This document shows positions 5,679 through 16,882 of a stretch of DNA of 32,668 nt, one piece after another. The position numbers and the translations under genes were made by a program. Below the pieces are notes generated by a model. It was not told where the DNA came from. It saw only the letters and a program-made list of their open reading frames with translations, and searched no databases. How positions within the stretch are numbered: position 1 is the first letter of the stretch; every line of letters starts with the position of its first letter. The stretch is from the sequence record DRR378314_226. One strand, given 5' to 3'.

Positions 5679-5756
5679 TAGTCACGAACTTCTTTTATAG
5701 AAATAAATCCTATTTAATTTAATAATACTAATCTTGGGCGTATTATTAAAAATGAA

Positions 5757-5798
5757 AAAACCCCGATGTTGGTACAATTGAACCAACATCGGGGTTTT
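5757..5798. terminator. Bidirectional intrinsic terminator
   Basis: 17-bp perfect inverted repeat AAAACCCCGATGTTGGT / ACCAACATCGGGGTTTT between convergent genes. Confidence 0.88.
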
Positions 5799-5827
5799 AA
5801 GTTTCCAAATAAAGCGGTAGACCTCCC

Positions 5828-7999
5828 TTAAAAACTTATGGATGCCCCTAAGAGAAAATTAATCCCTGCCTGAGGATAGTAACCAGCTCCTTCATAAGTA
5901 GTAACGGTTCCAGGCACAGAATAATCATCATCAAAAGTATAAAAGTATCCATTGGACACAAATAAGGAATCGAAGATATTATTGACCAGTCCAGATAAAA
6001 CGATGCTCTTAAAAAACCCGTTGGTAGTGATCTCATACTGTACATTAAAATCGGTTTGCGAATACGAATCCAACTTGGAACCTTTAGAATCTATATTACC
6101 CATATATTGCTCTCCAACAAACTTGGTCAACACGCTAAATTGAACATTTTCCTTAGGCTGATAGGTTAAAACGTTTCCTACAATAATATCTGGCGAAAAG
6201 GAAATATGGGTATCCCCAAGTTCTTCTAGTTCACCATCACGCTGAAACACAAAATCCCTGTTTCTGTTTCTGCTCAATGCCACATTGGGCCGTATTTTAA
6301 ATTGATTCCCCAAAGCTATGGTGGCATCCACTTCCAAACCTAAACGGTAACTGTCCCCAACATTGGCACGTAAAGGGGCTCCAACATCATTTAATTCGCC
6401 AGTGAGCACCAATTGATCCTTATATCCCATATAATACACATTGGTGTTCAACTGTACATCCGGGGAAATATAGCGCCATCCCAACTCATAATCGTTCAAT
6501 TTCTCCGGCTTTGGGCTACCACTTTCATAGTCATTTCTGTTAGGCTCACGATTGGCCCTGGCATAAGAGAGATAAAAATTATTGTTCATGTTTAGATCGT
6601 AGGTAATCCCAACCTTTGGGTTAAAAAAATTAAAGGTGTCATCTACGATTCCTGTGTCTTCGCCATTGGCTGTATAGCCTATGGTCCTATACTGTAAATC
6701 CCCATAAGCACTCCATTGGTCGCTAAATTTATAATTCGCCTTGGCAAAAAGATTTAGATCCGTTTTGGTGGAACTATCATCATAATATCTGTCTTCATAA
6801 TCCTTATTATTGGAATAACGGGCCCAAATAATTTCCCCAAAATGGCTTCCTTCATATTTGTTCCAACCTCCTCCAAGAATTAAATTCAAACTCTCTTGGT
6901 CATAATTGACAGAAAAAGTGGTACCGTAAAAATCATTGTCCAGCCAACGCCTTCTTATTAGATCGGTCTTATCCACTTCTTCCCCATCAACCATTATAGG
7001 CACAATTCCATAGGTGCTAAAGTCATCGTTTTCCTTGTACTGTTCAAAAAAACCTCTTCCCTTAGTAAAATGAAATGCCAGATTGGTATTCCAATTATCC
7101 GCAATTTGTTCATTCCAATGCAATTGAAAATGATTTTGCCTATAATTATCCTCTTCGTGGTCATAGAATTGGGTATTTCCATTTTCATCGGTATAGATTC
7201 CCGCAGAATTAAAGGTTCTGTCAGACTCCAATGTTTCTGCATCTATCCCGTTCCAAGCCTGATAGGTAATTTCATGTCCCCCGAACAACAATGCCTTTAC
7301 CAAAGTATTGTCATCAACATAGGAGCCTTGCAAAAAGTAAGAATCCAATTCGGAAGAAGCCCTATCAATATAACCGTCCGAGGTTATTCTGGACAAACGT
7401 CCTGCAATTTCAACATGATCGTTCAAAAGACCGGTGCTAAACTTCAAATTGTTCCTGAGTGTTCCAAAGCTGCCTATGGAAGACGAAATTTGACCAAAGG
7501 CCTCGTCGGAAACGGCATCGGTCAACAAATTTAAACTGGCTCCAAAGGCTCCTGATCCGTTTGTTGATGTTCCTACCCCACGCTGCAATTGCAAACTTTC
7601 TGTGGAAGAGGCAAAATCGGGCATGTTTACCCAAAACGAACCGTGTGATTCCGCATCGTTGTAGGGAATCCCGTTAATGGTAACGTTGACCCGTGTACCA
7701 TCACTACCACGGACTCGGATACCTGTGTAGCCTATACCGGCCCCGGCATCGGAAGTGGTAACCACTGCTGGCAGAAAATTCATAAGGATAGGAATATCCT
7801 GCCCTAAATTTCTAGGTTTGATCTGTTCTTTGGTCAGGTTGGTGAAAGTTACTGGAGATTGTTTGGTAACCCTAACAGCGGATACCAATACCTCATCCAA
7901 GGCAATTTCTTTTCCTTCCAAAGAATCTTTGGGTTTCTCTTGGCCAATCGCCAAAAGCGTAGTCGCTACGATAGCGACAGTTGTGAACATAGTTTTCAT
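5828..7999 (-). CDS. TonB-dependent receptor, probable thiamine uptake
   Basis: Signal peptide, TonB-box-like LDEVLVSA, plug motifs GYTGIRVRG and RVNVTINGIPYND, C-terminal Phe; TPP riboswitch directly upstream. Confidence 0.9.
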   Translation of the reverse strand: MKTMFTTVAIVATTLLAIGQEKPKDSLEGKEIALDEVLVSAVRVTKQSPVTFTNLTKEQIKPRNLGQDIPILMNFLPAVVTTSDAGAGIGYTGIRVRGSDGTRVNVTINGIPYNDAESHGSFWVNMPDFASSTESLQLQRGVGTSTNGSGAFGASLNLLTDAVSDEAFGQISSSIGSFGTLRNNLKFSTGLLNDHVEIAGRLSRITSDGYIDRASSELDSYFLQGSYVDDNTLVKALLFGGHEITYQAWNGIDAETLESDRTFNSAGIYTDENGNTQFYDHEEDNYRQNHFQLHWNEQIADNWNTNLAFHFTKGRGFFEQYKENDDFSTYGIVPIMVDGEEVDKTDLIRRRWLDNDFYGTTFSVNYDQESLNLILGGGWNKYEGSHFGEIIWARYSNNKDYEDRYYDDSSTKTDLNLFAKANYKFSDQWSAYGDLQYRTIGYTANGEDTGIVDDTFNFFNPKVGITYDLNMNNNFYLSYARANREPNRNDYESGSPKPEKLNDYELGWRYISPDVQLNTNVYYMGYKDQLVLTGELNDVGAPLRANVGDSYRLGLEVDATIALGNQFKIRPNVALSRNRNRDFVFQRDGELEELGDTHISFSPDIIVGNVLTYQPKENVQFSVLTKFVGEQYMGNIDSKGSKLDSYSQTDFNVQYEITTNGFFKSIVLSGLVNNIFDSLFVSNGYFYTFDDDYSVPGTVTTYEGAGYYPQAGINFLLGASISF

Positions 8000-8315: not shown

Positions 8316-10799
8316 ATGGAATCATTAATGAACAAGACAAAGAACAAATTCACCTTTAAAATAATGTTCAGCTATCTAATGCTTGGGATATTGACCCTGG
8401 TAGTAGCCTATTTTATATTTTCAGAAATTAAGGTATTTGTATCTACAGACACAGCAACGGAAAACGATGCCAAATTACTAAAAACAGGCTCCCTATTAAC
8501 AGAACTATATGAGGCGGAAAGTCTTTCCAAACTGGCACTCCAAAAAAAGACCCCAAAAAGCTTTACGGCCTATGCCCAAAAGATAGATTCCATTTTTATC
8601 ACGATAGACTCCCTTAAACTTCTTACAGTTAATGACTACCAAAAGGAGATGTTGGATAGTGTGCAGGGGCTTCTTAAAAAAAAGGTATTCAACAGTAATG
8701 AATTGCTGCGCTTAAAAAGAAAAAGCGAAACCAACAATTCTATAGACAATGCCCTCAAGGAATTTAGCAAAATTGAAGAGTCTCTTGGAAAAATTACTCC
8801 GGAAAGCCTAAATCCCAATTATTCGGACTTACCTCCTGATGCTCAGAATACCTTAAAAAAATGGGCAGAATATCTAAGTGAAAACGTCCCACAAGACACC
8901 AGTAACATTCCTGTTGCCCAACGGGTAGATTCTGTTTTAACGGTTTCCAAATCGCTTTTGGCAGAGGCCAAACAGAGCAATACCAAGGCCTTGCGTTCGG
9001 TAGCACAGAAAGAATTGCAATTAAGCAGGGCCGATCTGGAAATTTCACAGCAGTTGCGCAGTATTATTTCGGCCTTTGAACAGGAGGTAATTACAAAATC
9101 CTACAACGACAACCTAAAAAAACAAACCGCCCTAAAAAGAAGCCTGCGTGTGGCCGGTTTTGCCAGCTTGCTGGGTATAGCTATTGTGGGACTCTTCACT
9201 TTCCTAATTACCAAAGATTATTGGAAGGTACAATTGTATAGGCAGCAACTGGAGAAAGAAAAGAAATTTTCCGAATCCCTTTTAAGAAGTCGGGAACAAT
9301 TAATTTCTACGGTTAGCCATGACCTGCGAACACCATTGAATACCATAACAGGTTATTCCGAATTAATGGAAAATACCGGGCTTTCCGGCAAACAGGTGTC
9401 CTATTTAAAGAATGTAAAATCCGCTTCCAAATATGTGGATAGTCTAGTAAACGATCTATTGGATTTTTCCAAATTGGAGGCAGGAAAAATAAAAATAGAC
9501 CAGACAGCATTTATACTTTCCGACCTTATCAGGGAAACTGCCGAAAACCTCAAGGAAATACATTTGAAGAAACCCATAGAACTCCAGGTAATAATCGACA
9601 GGCAATTGGATAAGCCCGTTTTGGGAGATCCATTTAGGATAAGACAAATTTTGACCAACCTAATCGGCAATGCCTATAAATTTACCAATGAAGGTTTCAT
9701 AAAGGTTGAGGCCAAGGTACTAAACGAAGCGAACGGAAACTACCAAACCTTAATTCAGGTCACTGATACTGGCATAGGGATTAAAAAAGAAAAACAAGAA
9801 CACATTTTTAAAGAGTTTACCCAGGCAGAGGACCATACGGATAAAAAATATGGCGGTTATGGTCTAGGTCTTACTATTTCCAAGAAACTCACCGAACTGT
9901 TGGGTGGAGAAATTAGCCTCCATAGCGAGGAAAATAAAGGAAGTACATTTTCGGTTGAAATTCCTCTCGAGATATCAAAAAAACCTTTGAACTCCCCTAA
10001 GAAAATGGAAATCAGCCCAAAAGTGGAGTTGTCCCTTCTTATCATTGATGATGACCCTGCCATGCTAAAACTGCTCAAGGAAGTCTGTCAACATTTGGGA
10101 CTCGCTGCCCATACCTACAATAGTTTTGATGATGTTACTAGAATAGGGACACTTAATTACAACATGGTTTTGACCGATATACAAATGCCCAATATAACTG
10201 GTTTTGAAGTATTGGGCAAACTGCAAAACGGCACCTATTCGCATTATGCCGGGCAACCCATAGTAGCCATGACGGGGCGGAAGGATCTAAAAAGGAAGCA
10301 GTATATTGAAGCAGGTTTTTCAGATATCCTTCAAAAACCCTTTACCAAAGATATGTTCTTGGAAGTATTGAGCAACTTGTTCCCCCAAGCAGTTCGTAAA
10401 AAAGCTGAAAATACAGAAAAACCTAATATCGCCTCTGGTTCAAACTTATTCCACTTGGGGGTTATTTCCTCTTTTTTGGGAGATGATTATGAAGGCATAG
10501 CCGAAGTTTTGCGGACCTTTATTACCGATACCAAAACCAACATGGAAAAACTGAAAGTGGCGGTAGATGATATGGATATTAAGACGGTGAATGTTGTTTC
10601 ACATCGAATGCTCCCCATGTTCAGACAATTAAACAGTAAGGAGATAGTTCCAATATTAGAGCAATTGGAGATTTTGGAAATTGGCCAATGGGAACCTAAG
10701 GTCTTGAAACAAACCTACAGGGACATTCAGAATAAGTCCACCGTTTTGATCCTGGCCATTAAATCATATTTGGCTACAAGTCCAAATTATAGTGATTAA
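8316..10799 (+). CDS. Hybrid sensor histidine kinase (2 TM, periplasmic sensor, HisKA, HATPase, REC, Hpt-like)
   Basis: H-box VSHDLRTPL, N-box QILTNLIGNAYKFT, G-boxes DTGIGI and GYGLGLTI, receiver IIDDD...TDIQMP...KPF, C-terminal SHRMLPMF Hpt-like His. Confidence 0.93.
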   Translation: MESLMNKTKNKFTFKIMFSYLMLGILTLVVAYFIFSEIKVFVSTDTATENDAKLLKTGSLLTELYEAESLSKLALQKKTPKSFTAYAQKIDSIFITIDSLKLLTVNDYQKEMLDSVQGLLKKKVFNSNELLRLKRKSETNNSIDNALKEFSKIEESLGKITPESLNPNYSDLPPDAQNTLKKWAEYLSENVPQDTSNIPVAQRVDSVLTVSKSLLAEAKQSNTKALRSVAQKELQLSRADLEISQQLRSIISAFEQEVITKSYNDNLKKQTALKRSLRVAGFASLLGIAIVGLFTFLITKDYWKVQLYRQQLEKEKKFSESLLRSREQLISTVSHDLRTPLNTITGYSELMENTGLSGKQVSYLKNVKSASKYVDSLVNDLLDFSKLEAGKIKIDQTAFILSDLIRETAENLKEIHLKKPIELQVIIDRQLDKPVLGDPFRIRQILTNLIGNAYKFTNEGFIKVEAKVLNEANGNYQTLIQVTDTGIGIKKEKQEHIFKEFTQAEDHTDKKYGGYGLGLTISKKLTELLGGEISLHSEENKGSTFSVEIPLEISKKPLNSPKKMEISPKVELSLLIIDDDPAMLKLLKEVCQHLGLAAHTYNSFDDVTRIGTLNYNMVLTDIQMPNITGFEVLGKLQNGTYSHYAGQPIVAMTGRKDLKRKQYIEAGFSDILQKPFTKDMFLEVLSNLFPQAVRKKAENTEKPNIASGSNLFHLGVISSFLGDDYEGIAEVLRTFITDTKTNMEKLKVAVDDMDIKTVNVVSHRMLPMFRQLNSKEIVPILEQLEILEIGQWEPKVLKQTYRDIQNKSTVLILAIKSYLATSPNYSD

Positions 10800-12132
10800 T
10801 TTTGTTGTATAGCGTTTTCCTAGTAATCTGAAGGAGTTTGGCCGCTTTGGATTTATTAAAATTTGATTGTTTCAAGGCCTTTACTATTTGTTCCTTCTCA
10901 TAATCGGCCTTGGAAAAGTTATCGACTTTAGCATTGCTTTCCTTACTCTTATATACTTCTTTGGGCAAGGCAGCTTTCTCTACCATATCCCCACTGGTCA
11001 ACAGAACCGCCCTTTTTATAACATTCTGCAATTCACGTAGATTTCCGGGCCAATGATATTGCTTAAATATATCCTTTACATCCTCCGAAAAACCTTGCAC
11101 TACTTTTCCCAAGGATCGGTTGGCCTTTTTCAAAAAGAAATCAGCGAAAAGTGGTAGGTCTTCAAAGCGTTCCTCCAAGGACGGGATTTCTACAGAAAAT
11201 TCGTTGATCCTATGAAAAAGATCTTCCCTAAAACTACCGTTTTCAACAGCCTCTGTTAGGTCTTCGTTCGTGGCCGTTACAATTCGGATATCTACCTCTA
11301 TCTCCTTGTTACTACCAACTCTTTTAATTTTTCTTTCCTGTAGGGCCCTTAACAACTGTATCTGGTTTTCATAGGAAAGGTTCCCTATTTCGTCCAAAAA
11401 TAAGGTACCCCCATTGGCCGCCTCAAAATGTCCCTTTTTATCCTCCACTGCTCCAGTAAAACTTCCTTTAACATGCCCAAAAAATTCACTCGTAGCAATT
11501 TCTTTGGGAATGGCACCGCAATCTACGGCCACAAAATTGTGTTCATTGCGCTTACTATTATCGTGTATCGCCCTTGCAGTTACCTCCTTTCCTGTCCCAC
11601 TTTCCCCTGTAATTAAAACGGACATGTCCGTAGGGGCCACCAGCTTTATGTACTCGTGCAATTTTTTGGAAGCCTCACTTATTCCAATAACAACCCTATC
11701 GTCCTGGGGATCAACTACCAAATTTTCGCTTTTATGGCTATCCTTTGGCGCACTATCCAATTGCCTCTCGGTCTCTTGGTTTAAGGCGCTTTTAATCTGC
11801 ATTAGAATTTCCTCTGGAGTAAATGGTTTGGAGATGTAGTCGTAGGCACCCTTTTTCATGGCCTCAACGGCAGACCCAACCTCGGCATAACCGGTCATAA
11901 CAATAACCTGTGTCTTTGGATTTACCTCCTTGATATCGGATAAAAGTTGAAGCCCATCATAATTGGGAAGTCGCAAATCTGTTAAAACTAGATCATAGGT
12001 GCTTGCCTTGAATTTGGTCTTGGCATCCTGGGCAGTAAAACTTTCGTCGACATCGTAACCGTTTCTAATCAAAAACTTTTGAAGCATTTGACAAAAAGCG
12101 GCGTCATCTTCAATGATAAGGAGTTTGGGCAT
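10774..12132 (-). CDS. Sigma54-dependent (NtrC-family) response regulator
   Basis: REC (IEDD...TDLRLP), Walker A GESGTGKE, GSFTGA loop, LFLDEIG, WPGNLRELQN, Fis-type HTH NKSKAAKLLQITRKTLYNKI. Confidence 0.96.
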   Translation of the reverse strand: MPKLLIIEDDAAFCQMLQKFLIRNGYDVDESFTAQDAKTKFKASTYDLVLTDLRLPNYDGLQLLSDIKEVNPKTQVIVMTGYAEVGSAVEAMKKGAYDYISKPFTPEEILMQIKSALNQETERQLDSAPKDSHKSENLVVDPQDDRVVIGISEASKKLHEYIKLVAPTDMSVLITGESGTGKEVTARAIHDNSKRNEHNFVAVDCGAIPKEIATSEFFGHVKGSFTGAVEDKKGHFEAANGGTLFLDEIGNLSYENQIQLLRALQERKIKRVGSNKEIEVDIRIVTATNEDLTEAVENGSFREDLFHRINEFSVEIPSLEERFEDLPLFADFFLKKANRSLGKVVQGFSEDVKDIFKQYHWPGNLRELQNVIKRAVLLTSGDMVEKAALPKEVYKSKESNAKVDNFSKADYEKEQIVKALKQSNFNKSKAAKLLQITRKTLYNKINHYNLDL

Positions 12133-12211
12133 ACCTTTCTATTACAATTTACTATAGATGGTAAAAATACCATAAGAAAGTTAGTTGCCTTTAAAAATTT
12201 TCATAAAAAAT

Positions 12212-12242
12212 AGAGGGGGATTGTATAAAACAATCCCCCTCT
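12212..12242 (-). terminator. Intrinsic terminator of paralogue 1
   Basis: AGAGGGGGATTGT-5nt-ACAATCCCCCTCT followed by ATTTTTT on the minus strand. Confidence 0.85.
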
Positions 12243-12283
12243 TACCAAACCAACTTGATACAAAACAAATAATTCAAGTTTTA

Positions 12284-12586
12284 CTATAGTTCTATCCAGT
12301 TACCGTCTTTATCGGCATACAAAGTACCTGTAGTACCATCCTCCAAAGTTACTTCCAACTTATATTGCTCCTGCTTATTTACATAAGCTTTACTGATGGT
12401 CCCCGAAGGATAGTCAGTAGAAACAGCTGTTGCAACCGCTTCTGGTAAATCACTTGTTTCTATTTCAGAGAAGTCGTCCTGAGCTATTGCAGTTTGTGTA
12501 GTTACTAGTGCTACATCTTCACCTGCTTGAGCAAATGCGGTTAGACTTCCGAATGATAATACTGCTACAAAAAATAATTTTTTCAT
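12284..12586 (-). CDS. Small secreted PepSY-like/DUF2874-like protein, paralogue 1 (100 aa)
   Basis: Start moved to MKKLFF (signal peptide ending AFA); LPEAV...YP..TISKAY...YKLEV...LYADKDGNWI. Confidence 0.8.
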   Translation of the reverse strand: MKKLFFVAVLSFGSLTAFAQAGEDVALVTTQTAIAQDDFSEIETSDLPEAVATAVSTDYPSGTISKAYVNKQEQYKLEVTLEDGTTGTLYADKDGNWIEL

Positions 12587-12621
12587 GATTTTCATTTTAA
12601 TAGTTAAACTTGTTATATCTA

Positions 12622-12639
12622 TTGAAAATATGATACCAA
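12622..12639 (-). promoter_or_regulatory. Sigma54-like promoter of paralogue 1
   Basis: TTGGTATCATATTTTCAA (GG-N10-TC; non-canonical -12). Confidence 0.45.
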
Positions 12640-12712
12640 AATTCAACGAACACTTAAAATATACGTAACCACCTATATATGTGTGTGTTATGATTCGTGC
12701 ACAAAAAATTGA

Positions 12713-12762
12713 ACTGTGTATTTTTGGGTATCAAACTTTTTTAATGGGTAAAAACTAAACAC
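12713..12762. promoter_or_regulatory. Conserved upstream motif (candidate enhancer/UAS), copy 1
   Basis: ACTGTGTA-TTTT-TGGGTAT-N13-TGGGTAAAAACTAAACAC; repeated at 13383 and 14073. Confidence 0.65.
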
Positions 12763-12899
12763 TATTTCTTATGTATCCTTATTGTATGCCAGAAACAGAT
12801 TCTTTATTACCTAATAATTAATTGTGCCAAATCGCCAATCAAATGACAATGCCATCAAGTTACCGCCATATTTCACCTTATAAAACACCAAAAACAAAA

Positions 12900-12925
12900 A
12901 ATGGGATCGTTTAAACGATCCCATT
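12900..12925 (-). terminator. Intrinsic terminator of paralogue 2
   Basis: Palindrome AATGGGATCGTTTAAACGATCCCATT followed by TTTTGTTTTT on the minus strand. Confidence 0.8.
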
Positions 12926-12963
12926 ATCATTGGTATGCCCAATAATATCATAATAAACACATC

Positions 12964-13266
12964 CTATCTTTCTATCCAATCCCCATCCTTATCGGCATAT
13001 ATGGTACCGCTATTGCCTTCCTTCAAAATTATATCCAACCTGAATTGTTGGAAATTGTTAACATAGGCCTTATTGATAACCGCAGAAGGATAATAGGTGT
13101 CTATTGCCTTGGTCACTGCTTCGGGCAATTCTGCAGCACCTATTTCGGAGAATTTATCTTGAGCAATGCTCATTTCCGTAACCGCCCCTGTTGCTGCTTT
13201 GTTCTCTTGAGCACAGGCGGTTAAACTTGTTATTGATAATGCAATTCCAAAAAATAGCTTTCTCAT
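12964..13266 (-). CDS. Small secreted PepSY-like/DUF2874-like protein, paralogue 2 (100 aa)
   Basis: Start MRKLFF; LPEAVTKAIDTYYPSAVINKAY...IYADKDGDWI; a Cys in LTAC might form a lipobox. Confidence 0.8.
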   Translation of the reverse strand: MRKLFFGIALSITSLTACAQENKAATGAVTEMSIAQDKFSEIGAAELPEAVTKAIDTYYPSAVINKAYVNNFQQFRLDIILKEGNSGTIYADKDGDWIER

Positions 13267-13299
13267 GATTCTAATTTTAATAATTATTACCATTACCAA

Positions 13300-13316
13300 A
13301 GGAAAAACGATACCGA
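13300..13316 (-). promoter_or_regulatory. Sigma54-like promoter of paralogue 2
   Basis: TCGGTATCGTTTTTCCT (GG-N10-CC), aligns with the paralogue 1 element. Confidence 0.4.
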
Positions 13317-13382
13317 AATCAATAAAAAACCTTCATTACACTGACTTTCAATAACTTAAAGTAGTTTTGCTATTACACAAAG

Positions 13383-13432
13383 ACTGTGTAATAATGGGTA
13401 TTAAGGAATTCAATTGTGTTAAAATTACACAC
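13383..13432. promoter_or_regulatory. Conserved upstream motif (candidate enhancer/UAS), copy 2
   Basis: ACTGTGTA-ATAA-TGGGTAT-N13-TGTGTTAAAATTACACAC; same 50-bp span as copy 1. Confidence 0.65.
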
Positions 13433-13560
13433 CATAACCTCAGATAGGGGAACAATGACAACTTGAAAACCCATGAACAGGACTAAATATGGCAACGGCT
13501 TACACTATTCTACTAAGACATAAATAATAGTTGGGTGCCACTTTCCAATAGAAACGCATA

Positions 13561-13582
13561 AGGGCCACCATAAGGTAGCCCT
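13561..13582 (-). terminator. Hairpin downstream of paralogue 3 (probable terminator)
   Basis: Minus-strand RNA AGGGCUACC-UUAU-GGUGGCCCU (9 bp, one G-U); weak U tail. Confidence 0.55.
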
Positions 13583-13622
13583 GCTAATTCAAATAACTCA
13601 TATAACTCACTTTACCAATGCA

Positions 13623-13934
13623 TTACATATCTATCCAGTTGCCTGAAGCATCGGCATATAATTCGGAATTGGTTCCATCTGAAAAAGTAACCTCCAACTT
13701 ATATTCAGCCTCTTCATTTACATATGCTTTGTTTATTACGGCTCCGGCATGATCCTTCTCCAAAGCCTTTGTAATTGTGTCGGGCAATTGATCAAGATCT
13801 ATTTCAGTAAATTCTTGAGCAATAATTACTTCCATAATTCCATCGTGAAATATTGGAGGTGACGCCAAAACTGGACCTAAACTTCCCATTGCCATCGCTG
13901 TGGCAAAAACCAAGCTTTTCATATCATTTTTCAT
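13623..13934 (-). CDS. Small secreted PepSY-like/DUF2874-like protein, paralogue 3 (~100 aa)
   Basis: Start MKNDMKSLVF (alternative ATG at 13922); LPDTITKAL...AVINKAY...YKLEV...LYADASGNWI. Confidence 0.8.
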   Translation of the reverse strand: MKNDMKSLVFATAMAMGSLGPVLASPPIFHDGIMEVIIAQEFTEIDLDQLPDTITKALEKDHAGAVINKAYVNEEAEYKLEVTFSDGTNSELYADASGNWIDM

Positions 13935-13982
13935 ATCTCTAGTGTTTTGTGTGAATACTATTTGTTTCTCACAGCAGATAGA

Positions 13983-13998
13983 AGGAAAATTGTGCCAA
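13983..13998 (-). promoter_or_regulatory. Sigma54-like promoter of paralogue 3
   Basis: TTGGCACAATTTTCCT: canonical -24 TGGCAC, non-canonical -12. Confidence 0.5.
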
Positions 13999-14072
13999 CA
14001 ATCAAATTTCAATAATTAAATTTACACCACATTGACAATCAGTTATTTATGCAAAATCTATTATTTATGGGG

Positions 14073-14127
14073 AATGTATAAATATGTATAGCACCGCAAA
14101 AAGTGTATAAAAATTATACACTTTTTG
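14073..14127. promoter_or_regulatory. Conserved upstream motif (candidate enhancer/UAS), copy 3, with a perfect palindrome
   Basis: AATGTATA-AATA-TGTATAG-N12-TGTATAAAAATTATACAC; includes the 14-bp inverted repeat CAAAAAGTGTATAA-AAA-TTATACACTTTTTG (14097-14127). Confidence 0.6.
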
Positions 14128-14187: not shown

Positions 14188-15726
14188 CTATTTTACCTGA
14201 TGAGCAGGTTTTAATAGGTCGTTGACCGTTTTTACAGGATTGAAGGTCACCAAGGGAACTTCAACAAAAATAGTATTCCAAAAGGCCATGGCACCGTTCC
14301 ATAGACCTGGCAGCTCCAGAGCTTTTAGATCTTTTCCTTCTTTTGTTTTTTGGGTGATAAAACCTTGTTTGGCATCTACATAATTGAGCAAATTAAATTT
14401 CTCTCCCTTATAATTTCTTACCCCGCAGACCAAATCTACCGGGTTAAAGTGGGTAGAGTTTTTTAAGATATCGACCTGTGCCGCATTATCCATATCTACT
14501 TGTGCAGATTCTATAATTTGAAGTGAAATATGACCGTGGGCATCCCTTATCCAAAACGGACCGCCTCCAGGTTCGCCTTCATTCTTGACCATTCCACAAA
14601 TACGAATGGGACGGTTTATCTTATCCTTTAAAATTTCTATTTGTTGCCCTATACTAAAACCCCCGAATTTATCTGAGAATCGGACATTTAAATCCTTTTC
14701 CAAAAACGATTTTATAGTTTCCAATAATTCAGAAGTTAAATTATCCCCGTCCAATAGCTTGGCGTATTCAAACGCCTTGCTTTGTAATTCCAACAACAGT
14801 CCGGCCAATATCTTTTTGCTTTTGGCAACGTCGTCAGAAAATCTTGGAACCACCACATTATCAATATTCTTTATAAAAATAATGTCCGCATCCTGCTCGT
14901 TCAGGTTCTCTATCAAGGAACCGTGACCAGCTGGCCTGAACAACAGGGAGCCATCCGAATTTCTGAAAGGTTTGTTGTCCAAAGTTACAGCGATAGTATC
15001 CGTAGAAGGCTTCTGAAAGGAATAGTTAACCGTAAAGGAGGTTTTAGCATCCTTTGCCACACGCTCCCCGGCAGTCTTAAATTCTTTGTTGAACATTTCA
15101 CCATGCTGCTCAGAAATGGTAAAATGTAGATTTGCCTCGTTATTCACCTGGGCGTAGGCAATAGCCTCCTTTAAATGTTCCTCGAAAGGTGTGGCGGTGT
15201 GCTTGCCATAGTCATGAAAGGGCAAAAGGCCTTTTGGGTAAAATCCGAAATCCAAGCCTTCAGGCAATAACATCTCCTTTACAAAAAGGTACTTTTCCTC
15301 ATCCTGGGAGCTTGTCTTACCAGCTATCCTTTTTTGAATAAGGTCATAAAAGGCAAATTTTTTATACCCTTCAAAGAAGGCCTTCACATCCTTATCCTTG
15401 GTTCTGTCCAAATAGGCCTCGAATTTTTCGGCTTTGGGATCATAGGTATCCAAAAAATTGAACATTGCCTTGAACATTCGGGATGCAGCACCGGAAGCCG
15501 GTACAAATTTCAGAAGTGAAATTTTCTTCTTTGCATCCTCAAATTTTTTAATAAGCCCTTGCTCCTCAGCCTCGGAAAATTTGGAAATGCCATCGGATAC
15601 TACCGCGGCCTTTTCCAATCTCACAAAAGGAATACCCTCCTTAAATGTCTCAATTTGACCAAGAACTTTTTCTTTAGAAATACCCTTCTTTTCTAATTGT
15701 TTTTTGTCTGCTTCCGTTAATTCCAT
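14188..15726 (-). CDS. DUF4301 family protein (putative nucleotidyltransferase fold)
   Basis: KFVPASGAASRMFK, RPAGHG, IKNIDN, GEPGGGPFW, THFNPVDLVCG, LELPGLWNGAMA, FNPVKTVNDLL. Confidence 0.88.
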   Translation of the reverse strand: MELTEADKKQLEKKGISKEKVLGQIETFKEGIPFVRLEKAAVVSDGISKFSEAEEQGLIKKFEDAKKKISLLKFVPASGAASRMFKAMFNFLDTYDPKAEKFEAYLDRTKDKDVKAFFEGYKKFAFYDLIQKRIAGKTSSQDEEKYLFVKEMLLPEGLDFGFYPKGLLPFHDYGKHTATPFEEHLKEAIAYAQVNNEANLHFTISEQHGEMFNKEFKTAGERVAKDAKTSFTVNYSFQKPSTDTIAVTLDNKPFRNSDGSLLFRPAGHGSLIENLNEQDADIIFIKNIDNVVVPRFSDDVAKSKKILAGLLLELQSKAFEYAKLLDGDNLTSELLETIKSFLEKDLNVRFSDKFGGFSIGQQIEILKDKINRPIRICGMVKNEGEPGGGPFWIRDAHGHISLQIIESAQVDMDNAAQVDILKNSTHFNPVDLVCGVRNYKGEKFNLLNYVDAKQGFITQKTKEGKDLKALELPGLWNGAMAFWNTIFVEVPLVTFNPVKTVNDLLKPAHQVK

Positions 15727-16289
15727 TATTTTCTCAATAGTTGGTTAATGTAGTTCTGGGCCGTTATCAGCCTTGTTTTTTTATCACCCTTTAAGATAAT
15801 AAAATTCCTGTTATATTTTTCCAAAGTATCCTTGAAATAAAGAAACATTCGTTCACGGTCATTTGGTTTATCCCTTAGGTCATCCTTTTCCCACGGAATG
15901 TCTATATAGGTCAGAAAATAGATATCGTAAGTGTTCTGCAATGCGTAAGTCTCCAAAACTGGATCACAATATCCCAAATAGTAGGCTTCGGAATAAACTT
16001 TGGTCTCCAAAAGATCGGTATCGCATATTAAGACTTCATTAGCCTTCTTGGTCAGGGAATTTTCCAATTTGATCTGTCCCTCAGCTATGGGCAATAAATC
16101 TTTTGGCTCACAGGTTTTCCTTTCTTTATCCCATTTGTCCTGAAGGTATTCACGTGCATATTCCGGTACCCAAACGGTATTGTAATGCTTGGCCAAATCT
16201 TGGGACAAGGTTGTCTTTCCCGTAGATTCCGGTCCAAATAACACTACTTTAATAATACTTGAGGGCTCTTGTTTAAACTTTTCTTCCAT
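15726..16289 (-). CDS. NadR-like stand-alone P-loop kinase (ribosylnicotinamide kinase-like, AAA_28)
   Basis: GPESTGKTT, VPEYAREY, ICDTD, PWEKDDLRD; overlaps pnuC by 46 bp and shares TAATG with DUF4301. Confidence 0.88.
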   Translation of the reverse strand: MEEKFKQEPSSIIKVVLFGPESTGKTTLSQDLAKHYNTVWVPEYAREYLQDKWDKERKTCEPKDLLPIAEGQIKLENSLTKKANEVLICDTDLLETKVYSEAYYLGYCDPVLETYALQNTYDIYFLTYIDIPWEKDDLRDKPNDRERMFLYFKDTLEKYNRNFIILKGDKKTRLITAQNYINQLLRK

Positions 16290-16882
16290 GCAAGGTATCC
16301 GAAAATGGCAATAATAGTGAACAATAAATATTGCAGAGATGTAAATATAAGTCCTTTATAAAGATATAATGGAACCGATATTACATCACCGATAATCCAA
16401 TATACCCAATTTTCAAGTTTTTTCTTGGCCATGAGCCACATTCCCACAAAGAATACGGCCGTTGTAAAGGTGTCTATATAAGCTGTCCAACTATCCAACT
16501 TATCAAATACCACGTATACAAAAACAACAAATAAAATAGTAGCAACAAATAAAAAAACAGTCCATTTTTTCTCTTTGGGGGTCGTTGTAGTTATTGGAAT
16601 AAAATGGGTCTCATCTACCTTTCTAGTCCATATATACCATCCGTAGACACTCATGGCGAAGTAATAGGCATTGATCAGCATATCTCCCAATAACCCAAAA
16701 ACAAAAAGGATATATACAAACAGCCCCGTACTAAGGATTCCTGTAGGGAAAACCAATATATTTTCCCTCATGGAGTACCAAACACTTAAAAATCCGAAAA
16801 ACACCCCTACCATTTCCAAAATTATCAAATGGGTAGGAGTATCTTGGTACTGGGCAAAAATCCATTCAAAAATGGGGCTCAT
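16244..16882 (-). CDS. pnuC: PnuC-family vitamin/nucleoside transporter
   Basis: About 7 hydrophobic segments; YGWYIW, DTFTT, MAKKKLENWVYWIIGD. Confidence 0.9.
   Translation of the reverse strand: MSPIFEWIFAQYQDTPTHLIILEMVGVFFGFLSVWYSMRENILVFPTGILSTGLFVYILFVFGLLGDMLINAYYFAMSVYGWYIWTRKVDETHFIPITTTTPKEKKWTVFLFVATILFVVFVYVVFDKLDSWTAYIDTFTTAVFFVGMWLMAKKKLENWVYWIIGDVISVPLYLYKGLIFTSLQYLLFTIIAIFGYLAWKKSLNKSPQVLLK

Follow-up and report, generated by a model that had tools for sequence, protein, structure and literature searches.

Are small secreted proteins that are encoded next to a two-component pair the outputs of that pair, and if so, how would their genes be switched on? The question is raised by a locus in sequence record DRR378314_226, a stretch of 32,668 nucleotides that is called the window below and is always meant at its full length. 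Here the gene of a hybrid sensor kinase converges on that of an NtrC-type enhancer-binding response regulator (the activator), the two overlapping by 26 bp, and three genes for secreted paralogues follow one another on the minus strand in the order P3, P2, P1, all of them 5' of the activator gene. A preliminary description, made from the letters of this DNA, had proposed a self-contained sigma-54 regulon at this place. Genes were read from open reading frames (ORFs) and domains from Pfam. We consider it probable (roughly 0.7) that the locus is a phosphorelay-controlled sigma-54 regulon with small secreted PepSY-like proteins as its conserved output, where we infer the sigma-54 dependence, the direct binding of the activator and the path of the phosphate.

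Occurrence of the small genes with the kinase/activator pair

A synteny search of the kinase/activator pair showed that the small genes, together with the promoter box and the upstream palindrome described below, co-occur with the pair across genera. The family was sampled with 151 genomes, essentially one per genus. The profile of the small proteins has matches in 51 of these and an orthologue of the activator is present in 55, with 49 genomes containing both. The activator orthologues (E <=2.5e-155) are separated by a clear gap from the paralogues (E >=6.6e-109), and at least one paralogous activator at E <=1e-90 is found in most genomes (136 out of 151). One to four small genes are located immediately upstream of the activator gene, on the same strand, in 44 out of the 49 genomes; in the remaining ones they are found 10 kb off (G099) or elsewhere in the genome (G072, G044, G097 and G034). 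The convergent kinase gene is present in 41 out of the 42 linked loci that were fetched, the 42nd locus ending at a contig edge, and two more (G045 and G001) were judged by coordinates alone. Six genomes contain the activator only, and in two of these (L090 and L095) a local profile search gives a weak small-protein match beside the activator gene; two genomes contain the small proteins only, one of them at E 3e-4. On the scale of the phylum (401 genomes), the small family was found in 18 out of 29 genomes of this family, in 4 out of 7 of a second family and in 2 genomes of a third one, and in none elsewhere.

There are a few loci with the pair in which the small genes are not of the usual kind. 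At locus L094 (5661-5972, minus strand) no PepSY-like gene was detected, and a box of the same kind precedes the gene of an 85-aa secreted, Lys/Glu/Ala-rich protein. Since this protein is unrelated, what is conserved may be the secretion of some small protein as the output, and not the PepSY-like fold in itself. At two activator-only loci, L093 (around 2177) and L103 (around 2613), a box is present upstream of the activator gene with no clear ORF after it.

The size of the regulon was addressed by pattern and family scans of G001, a genome that is 98% identical to the window over the locus. It has one rpoN gene, four true enhancer-binding activators, and small paralogues at this locus only. 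The palindrome TGTRTA-N5-TAYACA occurs twice, one occurrence being that of P3, and TGTGTA-N5-TACACA with up to one mismatch occurs 8 times as opposed to 5 times in the control, one occurrence being the TGTGTA-N5-AACACA site of P2. The relaxed box is not enriched genome-wide (27 vs 31 in the control) and therefore cannot be used alone for defining the regulon; its only match at the locus is the P1 box. The scans of G001 found no other place that has a palindrome as well as a box. This supports a small regulon, with room for further targets that have degenerate sites. The proposal that the regulon is self-contained may hold: the pattern scans of one near-identical genome, on which it is based, found no second locus with both elements. 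The proposal that the small genes are outputs of the pair gained from the synteny (44 out of 49), from the conserved box and from a palindrome that co-varies with the DNA-binding domain of the activator; they are probably its conserved and only outputs.

Promoter box and upstream sites

Across genera, the start codons of the small genes are preceded by a box with the consensus TGGYAY-N5-TTTC, followed by WW-TA. The pattern GGYAY-N5-TYYC was found 25-140 nt before the ATG in 56 out of 83 small genes, as opposed to 1 out of 313 other ORFs of at least 150 aa in the same loci, 0.19 per shuffled set and 0 on the opposite strand. The 63 boxes that were retained can be aligned without gaps, and in 56 of them 41-73 nt separate the first G from the ATG. 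The most frequent -24 hexamers are TGGTAT (20), TGGCAC (17), TGGCAT (14) and TGGTAC (4); the GG was demanded by the search pattern, the flanking T1 (55 out of 63) was not. T12 is present in 62 boxes and C15 in 58, and the conserved C follows the GG at precisely the spacing of the GG-N10-GC motif. In the window each paralogue had been described as having a GG-containing, -24-like box of its own, and these are TGGTAT for P1, CGGTAT for P2 and TGGCAC for P3 (Table 1). We read the box as a sigma-54 promoter; the dependence on sigma-54 is strongly inferred, and only inferred because the -12 half is without the G of the organism's canonical promoters. The sigma-54 promoters of the preliminary description are thus retained for their -24 half, the spacing and the upstream sites, but GG-N10-GC is missing and there is no G at -12. 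A generic scan of the window for GG-N10-GC was uninformative (148 vs 138 expected), with no occurrence before the start of a small gene.

The paralogues had also been described as not forming an operon. They are indeed separately wired in this genus, but in other genera they form a single operon, so that separate wiring is a trait of this genus and some others and not of the module. At three further loci, from a species-rich genus, 2-6 small genes are located behind one box, and in one species of this genus (L106, around 5700-5930, minus strand) there are tandem boxes, TGGCAC.. and then CGGCAT-N5-TTTC 26 nt on, before a five-gene operon. In 10 multi-gene loci the -12 element of the activator-distal gene tends to be C-rich (TCCT, TCCC, TCTC or TTCC) and that of the proximal gene is TTTC. 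In these loci (L048-L051, L055-L057, L059, L100 and the window) the distal gene often has a PIFHDG-like mature N-terminus; the SPPIFHDG-type subtype, to which P3 belongs, is usually the first gene in multi-gene clusters.

Further upstream, TGTGTAA/TTACACA is found in 43 out of the 63 regions that precede a box, as opposed to 3 expected. The usual site, AAAAAG-TGTGTA-N5-TACACA-CTTTTT, precedes the GG by about 110-140 nt, and 10-15 nt past the palindrome there are one or two extra TAYACA half-sites, about 10 nt apart, at times with TACCCA before them. Small genes that are unlinked from the activator have kept the box at L097, L100 and L102, and at the first two the palindrome as well. In the window, the suggestion that each paralogue has its own copy of an upstream motif of about 50 bp had to be modified: half-sites are common to all three, but they are not copies of one 50-bp sequence. 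Given the cross-genus conservation, and not the window alone, a chance origin of the box and of the sites is excluded.

The Fis-type helix-turn-helix (HTH) domain of the window activator ends with ..ITRKTLYNK.., and the half-sites follow this region in the other loci. Where the activator reads ..TRKTLYN, there are 92 TACACA and 6 TCTACA/TCCACA half-sites (50 regions), whereas with ..DRKTLYN there are 2 TACACA and 19 TCTACA/TCCACA (8 regions). The eight loci that have TTCTACA/TTCCACA repeats instead of the usual site are exactly those with D in place of T before RKTLYN. Such a co-variation is what direct binding by the activator predicts.

A number of points weigh against the sigma-54 reading and need to be discussed. 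The GGYAY-N5-TYYC pattern was fixed after the data had been seen, and 27 out of the 83 small genes are without a box. The latter are mostly second or later genes, 30-70 bp apart, i.e. operon members (L064, L068, L069, L074, L075), and for some of them the start may be misplaced in the annotation used here. G is found at position 14 in only 1 out of 63 boxes, and a TTGC -12 element is present neither in the 83 small genes nor in the 313 control ORFs. The -12 tetramers (TTTC 39, TTCC 10, TCCC 3, TCTC 3, TCCT 2, others 6), as well as the position matrix, are partly biased because the score by which boxes were picked favoured T and C at this place. The species has a -12 G elsewhere, as canonical TGGCAC-N5-TTGC sites occur 11 times in G001 as opposed to 2 in the reversed control. 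In Flavobacterium psychrophilum, 46 out of 47 mapped transcription start site (TSS) rows with the sigma-54 motif have the -12 G by our hand count of supplement 3 of PMC9723704, although this set was defined by a motif finder, so that G-less promoters are absent by construction. As to the upstream sites, the element of P1 consists of half-sites only and is the weakest of the three. Finally, the D-type activators are probably one clade, so the co-variation may reflect one evolutionary event, and the D-type half-site motif was defined after inspection.

One of the canonical sites, TGGCACCCTAGTTGC, is found at 954-968 of L008 (minus strand), which corresponds to G001:C3:785645-785659. It is located about 150 nt after the gene of another enhancer-binding protein and about 200 nt before an ORF resembling glutamate dehydrogenase (gdh-like), and looks like a classical nitrogen-type sigma-54 unit of the same species. 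The 15-mer TGGCACAACCATTGC, identical to this site, is present in three copies in G001.

Proteins and transcripts of the locus

The presence of a response regulator with receiver (REC), AAA+ and HTH domains beside three tandem signal-peptide paralogues of about 100 aa was confirmed by Pfam and by sequence alignment. The activator scores above the Pfam cut-offs with all three domains that define its type (Response_reg 99.1, Sigma54_activat 231.9 and HTH_8 49 bits). Enhancer-binding proteins contact sigma-54 through the GAFTGA loop, and the loop of this activator, GSFTGA, is one change away from that consensus. The activator is below all NCBIfam equivalog cut-offs, the best models being the PEP-CTERM response regulator, NtrC, ZraR, AtoC and GlrR. 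As its scores are far under the cut-offs (ZraR 389.5 vs 760, GlrR 359.2 vs 763 and NtrC 392.4 vs 558.6 bits), we rejected ZraR, GlrR and NtrC as equivalogs.

The region before the activator gene shows no sign of sigma-54 autoregulation, because the gene is preceded by the P1 terminator and the conserved promoter motif in front of it is of another kind. This motif, GCTTTCTTATGGTATTTTTAC, is kept in the closer genera; it is not of the -24/-12 type and its GG is not conserved. The T-rich TATTTTTAC in the same region resembles the -7 box of Bacteroidota sigma-A promoters, which is quoted as TAnnTTTG in PMC9723704. In addition, ATAGTAAATTGTAATA (12133-12165, minus strand) directly precedes the ATG of the activator gene and is present at just two loci, that of the window and that from the same genus. 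It is close to ATAGTAAATTGCAAAA, an example of the unassigned SM5 motif that is given before a sigma-54-dependent regulator gene of F. psychrophilum in supplement 3 of that study.

The kinase was described as a histidine kinase with REC and Hpt domains, of which HisKA (residues 326-390), HATPase_c (437-552) and REC (575-684) are found by Pfam, whereas the HPt is visible at the level of the orthologues but not by Pfam on the window protein. Pfam Hpt matches 39 out of 50 C-termini of the kinase orthologues at E <=0.1 (best 3.6e-7), and His763 (10602-10604) is invariant among them. A profile of the C-termini has the HPt of RcsD/YojN (1sr2, E 0.013) as its top match in the PDB, with the HPt matches spanning E 0.013-0.39, and nothing relevant was found there by phmmer with the C-terminus of the window kinase alone. 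The NCBIfam alignments of the kinase to ArcB, EvgS and TorS extend into this region. These findings support, at the family level, a divergent HPt. The N-terminal part is predicted to consist of a transmembrane helix (about residues 17-35), a periplasmic sensor domain (about 36-280) and a second transmembrane helix. Pfam gave no match on the sensor domain, and its model (pLDDT 79) is made up entirely of helices. The nearest structure is the helical bimodular domain (HBM) of McpS (Z 15.6, 173 residues aligned, root mean square deviation 11.8), and further neighbours are the four-helix-bundle sensors of the kinases TorS (Z 11.8, 197 aligned) and QseE (Z 13.0 and 11.4); matches between helical bundles are common and generic at such Z scores and are weak evidence.

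P2 and P3 are 41-53% identical to P1, and the three have the motif LP..A...I.KAYVN...L...G...YAD..G.WI in common. The conserved residues of the family include neither His nor Cys. The signal peptide of P2 (13203-13266) and that of its same-genus orthologue read ..SLTAC-AQEN and those of the other paralogues ..SLTAF-AQ; this possible lipobox may make P2 a lipoprotein, a feature that would be confined to this genus. The mature P1 protein, modelled with 67 sequences, consists of a disordered acidic linker and one beta-alpha-beta3 unit in which the helix packs on an antiparallel sheet (pLDDT 79 for the whole model, about 90 for the folded unit). All of the first 12 Foldseek matches of this model are DUF2874/PepSY-like/BLIP-like periplasmic proteins of Bacteroidales (E 0.013-0.23, probability 0.90-1.0; chains including 3u1w, 3due, 4dsd, 3db7, 3elg, 4fr9, 4poi, 4qoa and 4k61). 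The Pfam family PepSY_like (PF11396) has a gathering cut-off of 28.3 bits, which P1 does not reach (19.5-20.7); 34 out of 67 family members match it at E <=0.01, below the gathering cut-off, and P2 and P3 give no match at this threshold. The small proteins are thus modelled as a single PepSY-like (DUF2874/BLIP-like) repeat, and the model and the Foldseek search agree with the fold that had been suggested for them. As the solved relatives have at least two repeats and the small proteins one, dimers are plausible. Pfam and NCBIfam gave no match of the small proteins to a family of the ZraP/CpxP/Spy type, and the modelled fold is of the alpha/beta kind instead of a helical hairpin.

The statement that each paralogue has a 3' hairpin of its own was borne out as well, those of P1 and P2 being called by a terminator scan. 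The hairpin of P3 was not called by the scan and emerged only upon folding, 5 out of 200 shuffled sequences folding equally well. RNA evidence consists of assembled contigs of public runs, from which starts, strands and levels cannot be read; no conclusion follows from contig-free stretches (such as most of the activator gene in X4, and the intergenic regions), and the genes cannot be ranked by depth. Two RNA libraries, each from a different study, have contigs with few or no differences from the window; these cover P1, P3 and part of P2. P1 is covered by X3 (12308-12591, 0 differences) and by X4 (12243-12583, 2 differences). The X4 and X2 contigs end at 12583 and 12585, respectively, and a contig of X1, a DNA-like run, passes through this place (12440-12742); these ends hint weakly, if at all, at the end of a transcript close to the P1 start. 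An X3 contig (13377-13817) crosses the P3 hairpin. There are also two more exact TGGCAC hexamers on the minus strand (13535-13540 and 12824-12829), 20-70 nt 3' of the P3 hairpin and the P2 terminator, with A/T-rich sequence (TATT and ATTA) at the place of the -12 element; the X3 contig covers 13535-13540. These hexamers may act as decoys for sigma-54 or mark where small RNAs begin, or they may have arisen by chance.

In the flanking stretches (14188-16882 and 5828-7999), the upstream neighbours found by Pfam are DUF4301, AAA_28 (a NadR-like kinase) and a PnuC-type transporter. In a number of other genera, too, the small-gene cluster is directly preceded by the 3' end of the DUF4301 gene. A TonB-dependent receptor (Pfam) is encoded on the other flank of the kinase gene.

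Table 1. Features of the locus and their positions in the window
Feature	Position	Strand	Description
Hybrid sensor kinase	8316..10799	+	827 aa; Pfam HisKA, HATPase_c, Response_reg
NtrC-type enhancer-binding response regulator (activator)	10774..12132	-	452 aa; Pfam Response_reg, Sigma54_activat, AAA_lid_14, HTH_8
Putative promoter region of the activator gene	12133..12211	-	3' of the P1 terminator; holds GCTTTCTTATGGTATTTTTAC
P1 intrinsic terminator	12212..12242	-	13-bp stem and T-run; fold z -4.67
P1	12284-12595	-	103-aa precursor; Sec signal ending AFA; mature protein about 81 aa, acidic; one PepSY-like repeat (modelled)
P1 putative promoter box	12624..12638	-	TGGTAT-N5-TTTC; TGGTAT at 12633-12638; first G 42 nt before ATG
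P1 upstream half-sites	12698..12720	-	TACACA-N11-TGTGCA, preceded by TACCCA motifs
P2 intrinsic terminator	12900..12925	-	11-bp stem and T-run; fold z -3.45
P2	12964-13266	-	100-aa precursor; signal peptide ending LTAC
P2 putative promoter box	13301..13315	-	CGGTAT-N5-TTCC; CGGTAT at 13310-13315; first G 48 nt before ATG
P2 upstream sites	13374..13431	-	TGTGTA-N5-AACACA (13415-13431), TACACA-N5-TGTGTA (13374-13390)
P3 3' hairpin	13561..13582	-	9-bp stem with one G-U pair, weak U-tract; fold z -2.2
P3	13623-13934	-	103-aa precursor; mature N-terminus SPPIFHDG
P3 putative promoter box	13983..13997	-	TGGCAC-N5-TCCT; TGGCAC at 13992-13997; first G 62 nt before ATG
P3 upstream sites	14075..14127	-	perfect 14+14 palindrome around TGTATA-N5-TATACA (14097-14127)
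P3 direct repeat	14075-14090	-	TATACA-N4-TATACA; part of the P3 upstream element

Proposed mechanism, alternatives and known relatives

In the mechanism that we propose, the hybrid kinase would sense a periplasmic cue through its long helical-bundle domain, and the phosphate would pass from His to Asp (REC), then to His (HPt) and finally to the Asp of the NtrC-type activator. The phosphorylated activator would assemble on TGTGTA-N5-TACACA and the nearby TAYACA half-sites, about 110-140 nt upstream, and remodel the sigma-54 holoenzyme at the TGGYAY-N5-TTTC/TYCC box. Each small gene of the window would be transcribed as a unit of its own, up to its own hairpin, with the activator and the kinase expressed separately. 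What the products do is a separate question. We place periplasmic binding or inhibitor modules that act on an envelope target above feedback on the kinase, and give this role a little less than an even chance.

With the same wiring, the small proteins might be part of the sensor instead, binding to the helical domain of the kinase as negative-feedback modulators or co-sensors, with three differently tuned promoters that set the loop gain. ZraP and CpxP are said to be negative-feedback modulators, and TorT, LuxP and QseG are co-sensors for activation. The small genes are the sole conserved outputs found and always occur with the pair, the neighbours of the sensor model include kinases with a periplasmic partner (TorS was solved with TorT and QseE with QseG), and first-in-cluster and activator-proximal genes hold different -12 flavours across genera. 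On the other hand, the structural matches are of the generic kind, there are genomes in which the pair was found and no PepSY-like gene was detected, and at L094 the box is followed by the gene of a small secreted protein of another kind. A complex prediction for the sensor domain (36-280) and P1 (17-81), run without supplied alignments, scored 0.02 against a mark of 0.34 and weighs neither way. Taken together, a role in the sensor appears unlikely to us, even though it has more in its favour than the other alternatives. A more specific picture, a Flavobacteriaceae-specific envelope stress circuit in which a TorS/HBM-like kinase is tuned by its own sigma-54-driven PepSY-like products that bind back to it, made from a G-less class of promoters, is highly speculative. 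If it were true, the loss of the -12 G would alter the fork-junction "lock" and lead to graded, paralogue-specific induction, with a C-rich element at the first gene and TTTC at the proximal one.

Other alternatives concern the wiring itself. Some factor other than sigma-54 might bind at TGGYAY-N5-TTTC, or the box might belong to a sigma-A-type promoter; the small genes would then be neighbours that are retained for other reasons, and the real sigma-54 targets of the activator would lie elsewhere. The absence of a -12 G that is kept in the canonical sites of the species and in almost all of the F. psychrophilum promoters would fit this, as would the lack of genome-wide enrichment of the relaxed box. 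We nevertheless consider it improbable, as 51 out of the 63 boxes have a canonical -24 element (TGGCAC, TGGCAT or TGGTAT, the last two of which are also among the mapped F. psychrophilum promoters), the spacing from GG to C is identical to that of GG-N10-GC, the box and the palindrome, which changes along with the HTH of this very activator, are as far apart as expected for a promoter and its enhancer, and the upstream regions of small genes and control ORFs are equally devoid of a canonical TTGC box. Finally, the small genes could be sigma-54 targets of a different activator, their adjacency to the pair being synteny without regulation. There are three more true activators in G001 that could take this role, but the upstream half-site shifts with the recognition helix of this activator, and the small genes co-occur with this orthologue (49 out of 51 and 49 out of 55) while paralogous activators are present in most genomes. 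This last possibility seems very remote to us.

The significance of the phosphorelay-controlled regulon lies first in its occurrence in about a third of the sampled genera of one large marine and freshwater family, in a phylum whose sigma-54 regulons are, to our knowledge, poorly charted. It is a compact case that can be defined by sequence: one kinase, one activator, one binding site with a specificity residue (T vs D before RKTLYN) and one promoter class. The PepSY-like/DUF2874 proteins, of which there are many crystal structures without an assigned function, gain a regulatory context that can be tested, and sigma-54-type promoters that naturally lack the -12 G are available here as a set, which should be useful for asking what the role of that base is.

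It is instructive to compare the module with systems that are already known. No description of it was found in the open-access full-text literature, in agreement with what had been supposed. The closest parallel in terms of promoters is F. psychrophilum of the same bacterial family, in which a sigma-54 (SM4) regulon was mapped; according to PMC9723704, its promoters share the -24 half (TTGGCAC, TTGGCAT, TTGGTAT) with the present ones, and its targets include exported proteins without an assigned function as well as envelope functions. The -12 element is TTG-N in 46 of the 47 hand-counted rows of that study, as opposed to TTTC/TYCC here. Substring searches of its TSS table for the present promoter class returned only unrelated rows, so the module may be absent or silent in that strain.

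In terms of the secreted proteins, the solved DUF2874/PF11396 proteins of Bacteroidales (BVU2987 3due, BT0923 3db7, BDI_1975 3u1w and BF1215 4fr9) are the nearest relatives. They are secreted and have the same fold (Foldseek probability about 1.0, TMq 0.45-0.63), but contain at least two repeats in 126-250 aa, whereas in the proteins described here an acidic linker is followed by just one repeat, about 60 aa long. A "possible inhibitory function" was suggested for them in PMC2954215, which has no mention of two-component systems. A secreted DUF2874/PepSY-like protein that adjoins a sensor kinase/regulator pair is also found in Porphyromonas gingivalis, with PG0717 beside HaeSR (PMC3764172), and in Bacteroides thetaiotaomicron, in the BT0922-0923 neighbourhood (PMC10434189). 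However, HaeR is a classical regulator of 25 kDa and not a sigma-54 activator, PG0717 is a lipoprotein with four repeats, and in the accessible parts of these sources neither system involves sigma-54 or is described with such an architecture of promoters and sites.

In terms of overall design, the module resembles ZraPSR and, less closely, QseEGF, and is a member of neither. QseE/QseG/QseF is the same system as GlrK/YfhG/GlrR, and QseG is encoded between the kinase and regulator genes and is not a sigma-54 target. In that system as in the present one, the response regulator is a sigma-54 activator, the sensor of the kinase is a helical bundle (modelled as such here) and the locus also encodes a small envelope protein. 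The contact of QseG with the QseE sensor (complex 9m08 in the PDB) is a feature of QseG, the PepSY-like fold is present only here, and the activator is, as mentioned, well below the GlrR cut-off. ZraPSR of Enterobacteria consists of the kinase ZraS, the sigma-54 activator ZraR and the small periplasmic protein ZraP, i.e. both systems combine a two-component kinase and an NtrC-type activator with a neighbouring sigma-54 target that encodes a small periplasmic protein. The details are different, as the present kinase is of the hybrid type, with REC and a probable HPt domain, the output consists of PepSY-like proteins (1-6 paralogues, each with a promoter of its own in the window), the -12 element is without G and the activator has only about half of the score that the ZraR model demands. 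We know of no Zra/Cpx-like circuit that was described in this phylum, and if the small secreted proteins act back on the kinase, the module would be a functional analogue of Zra/Cpx there.

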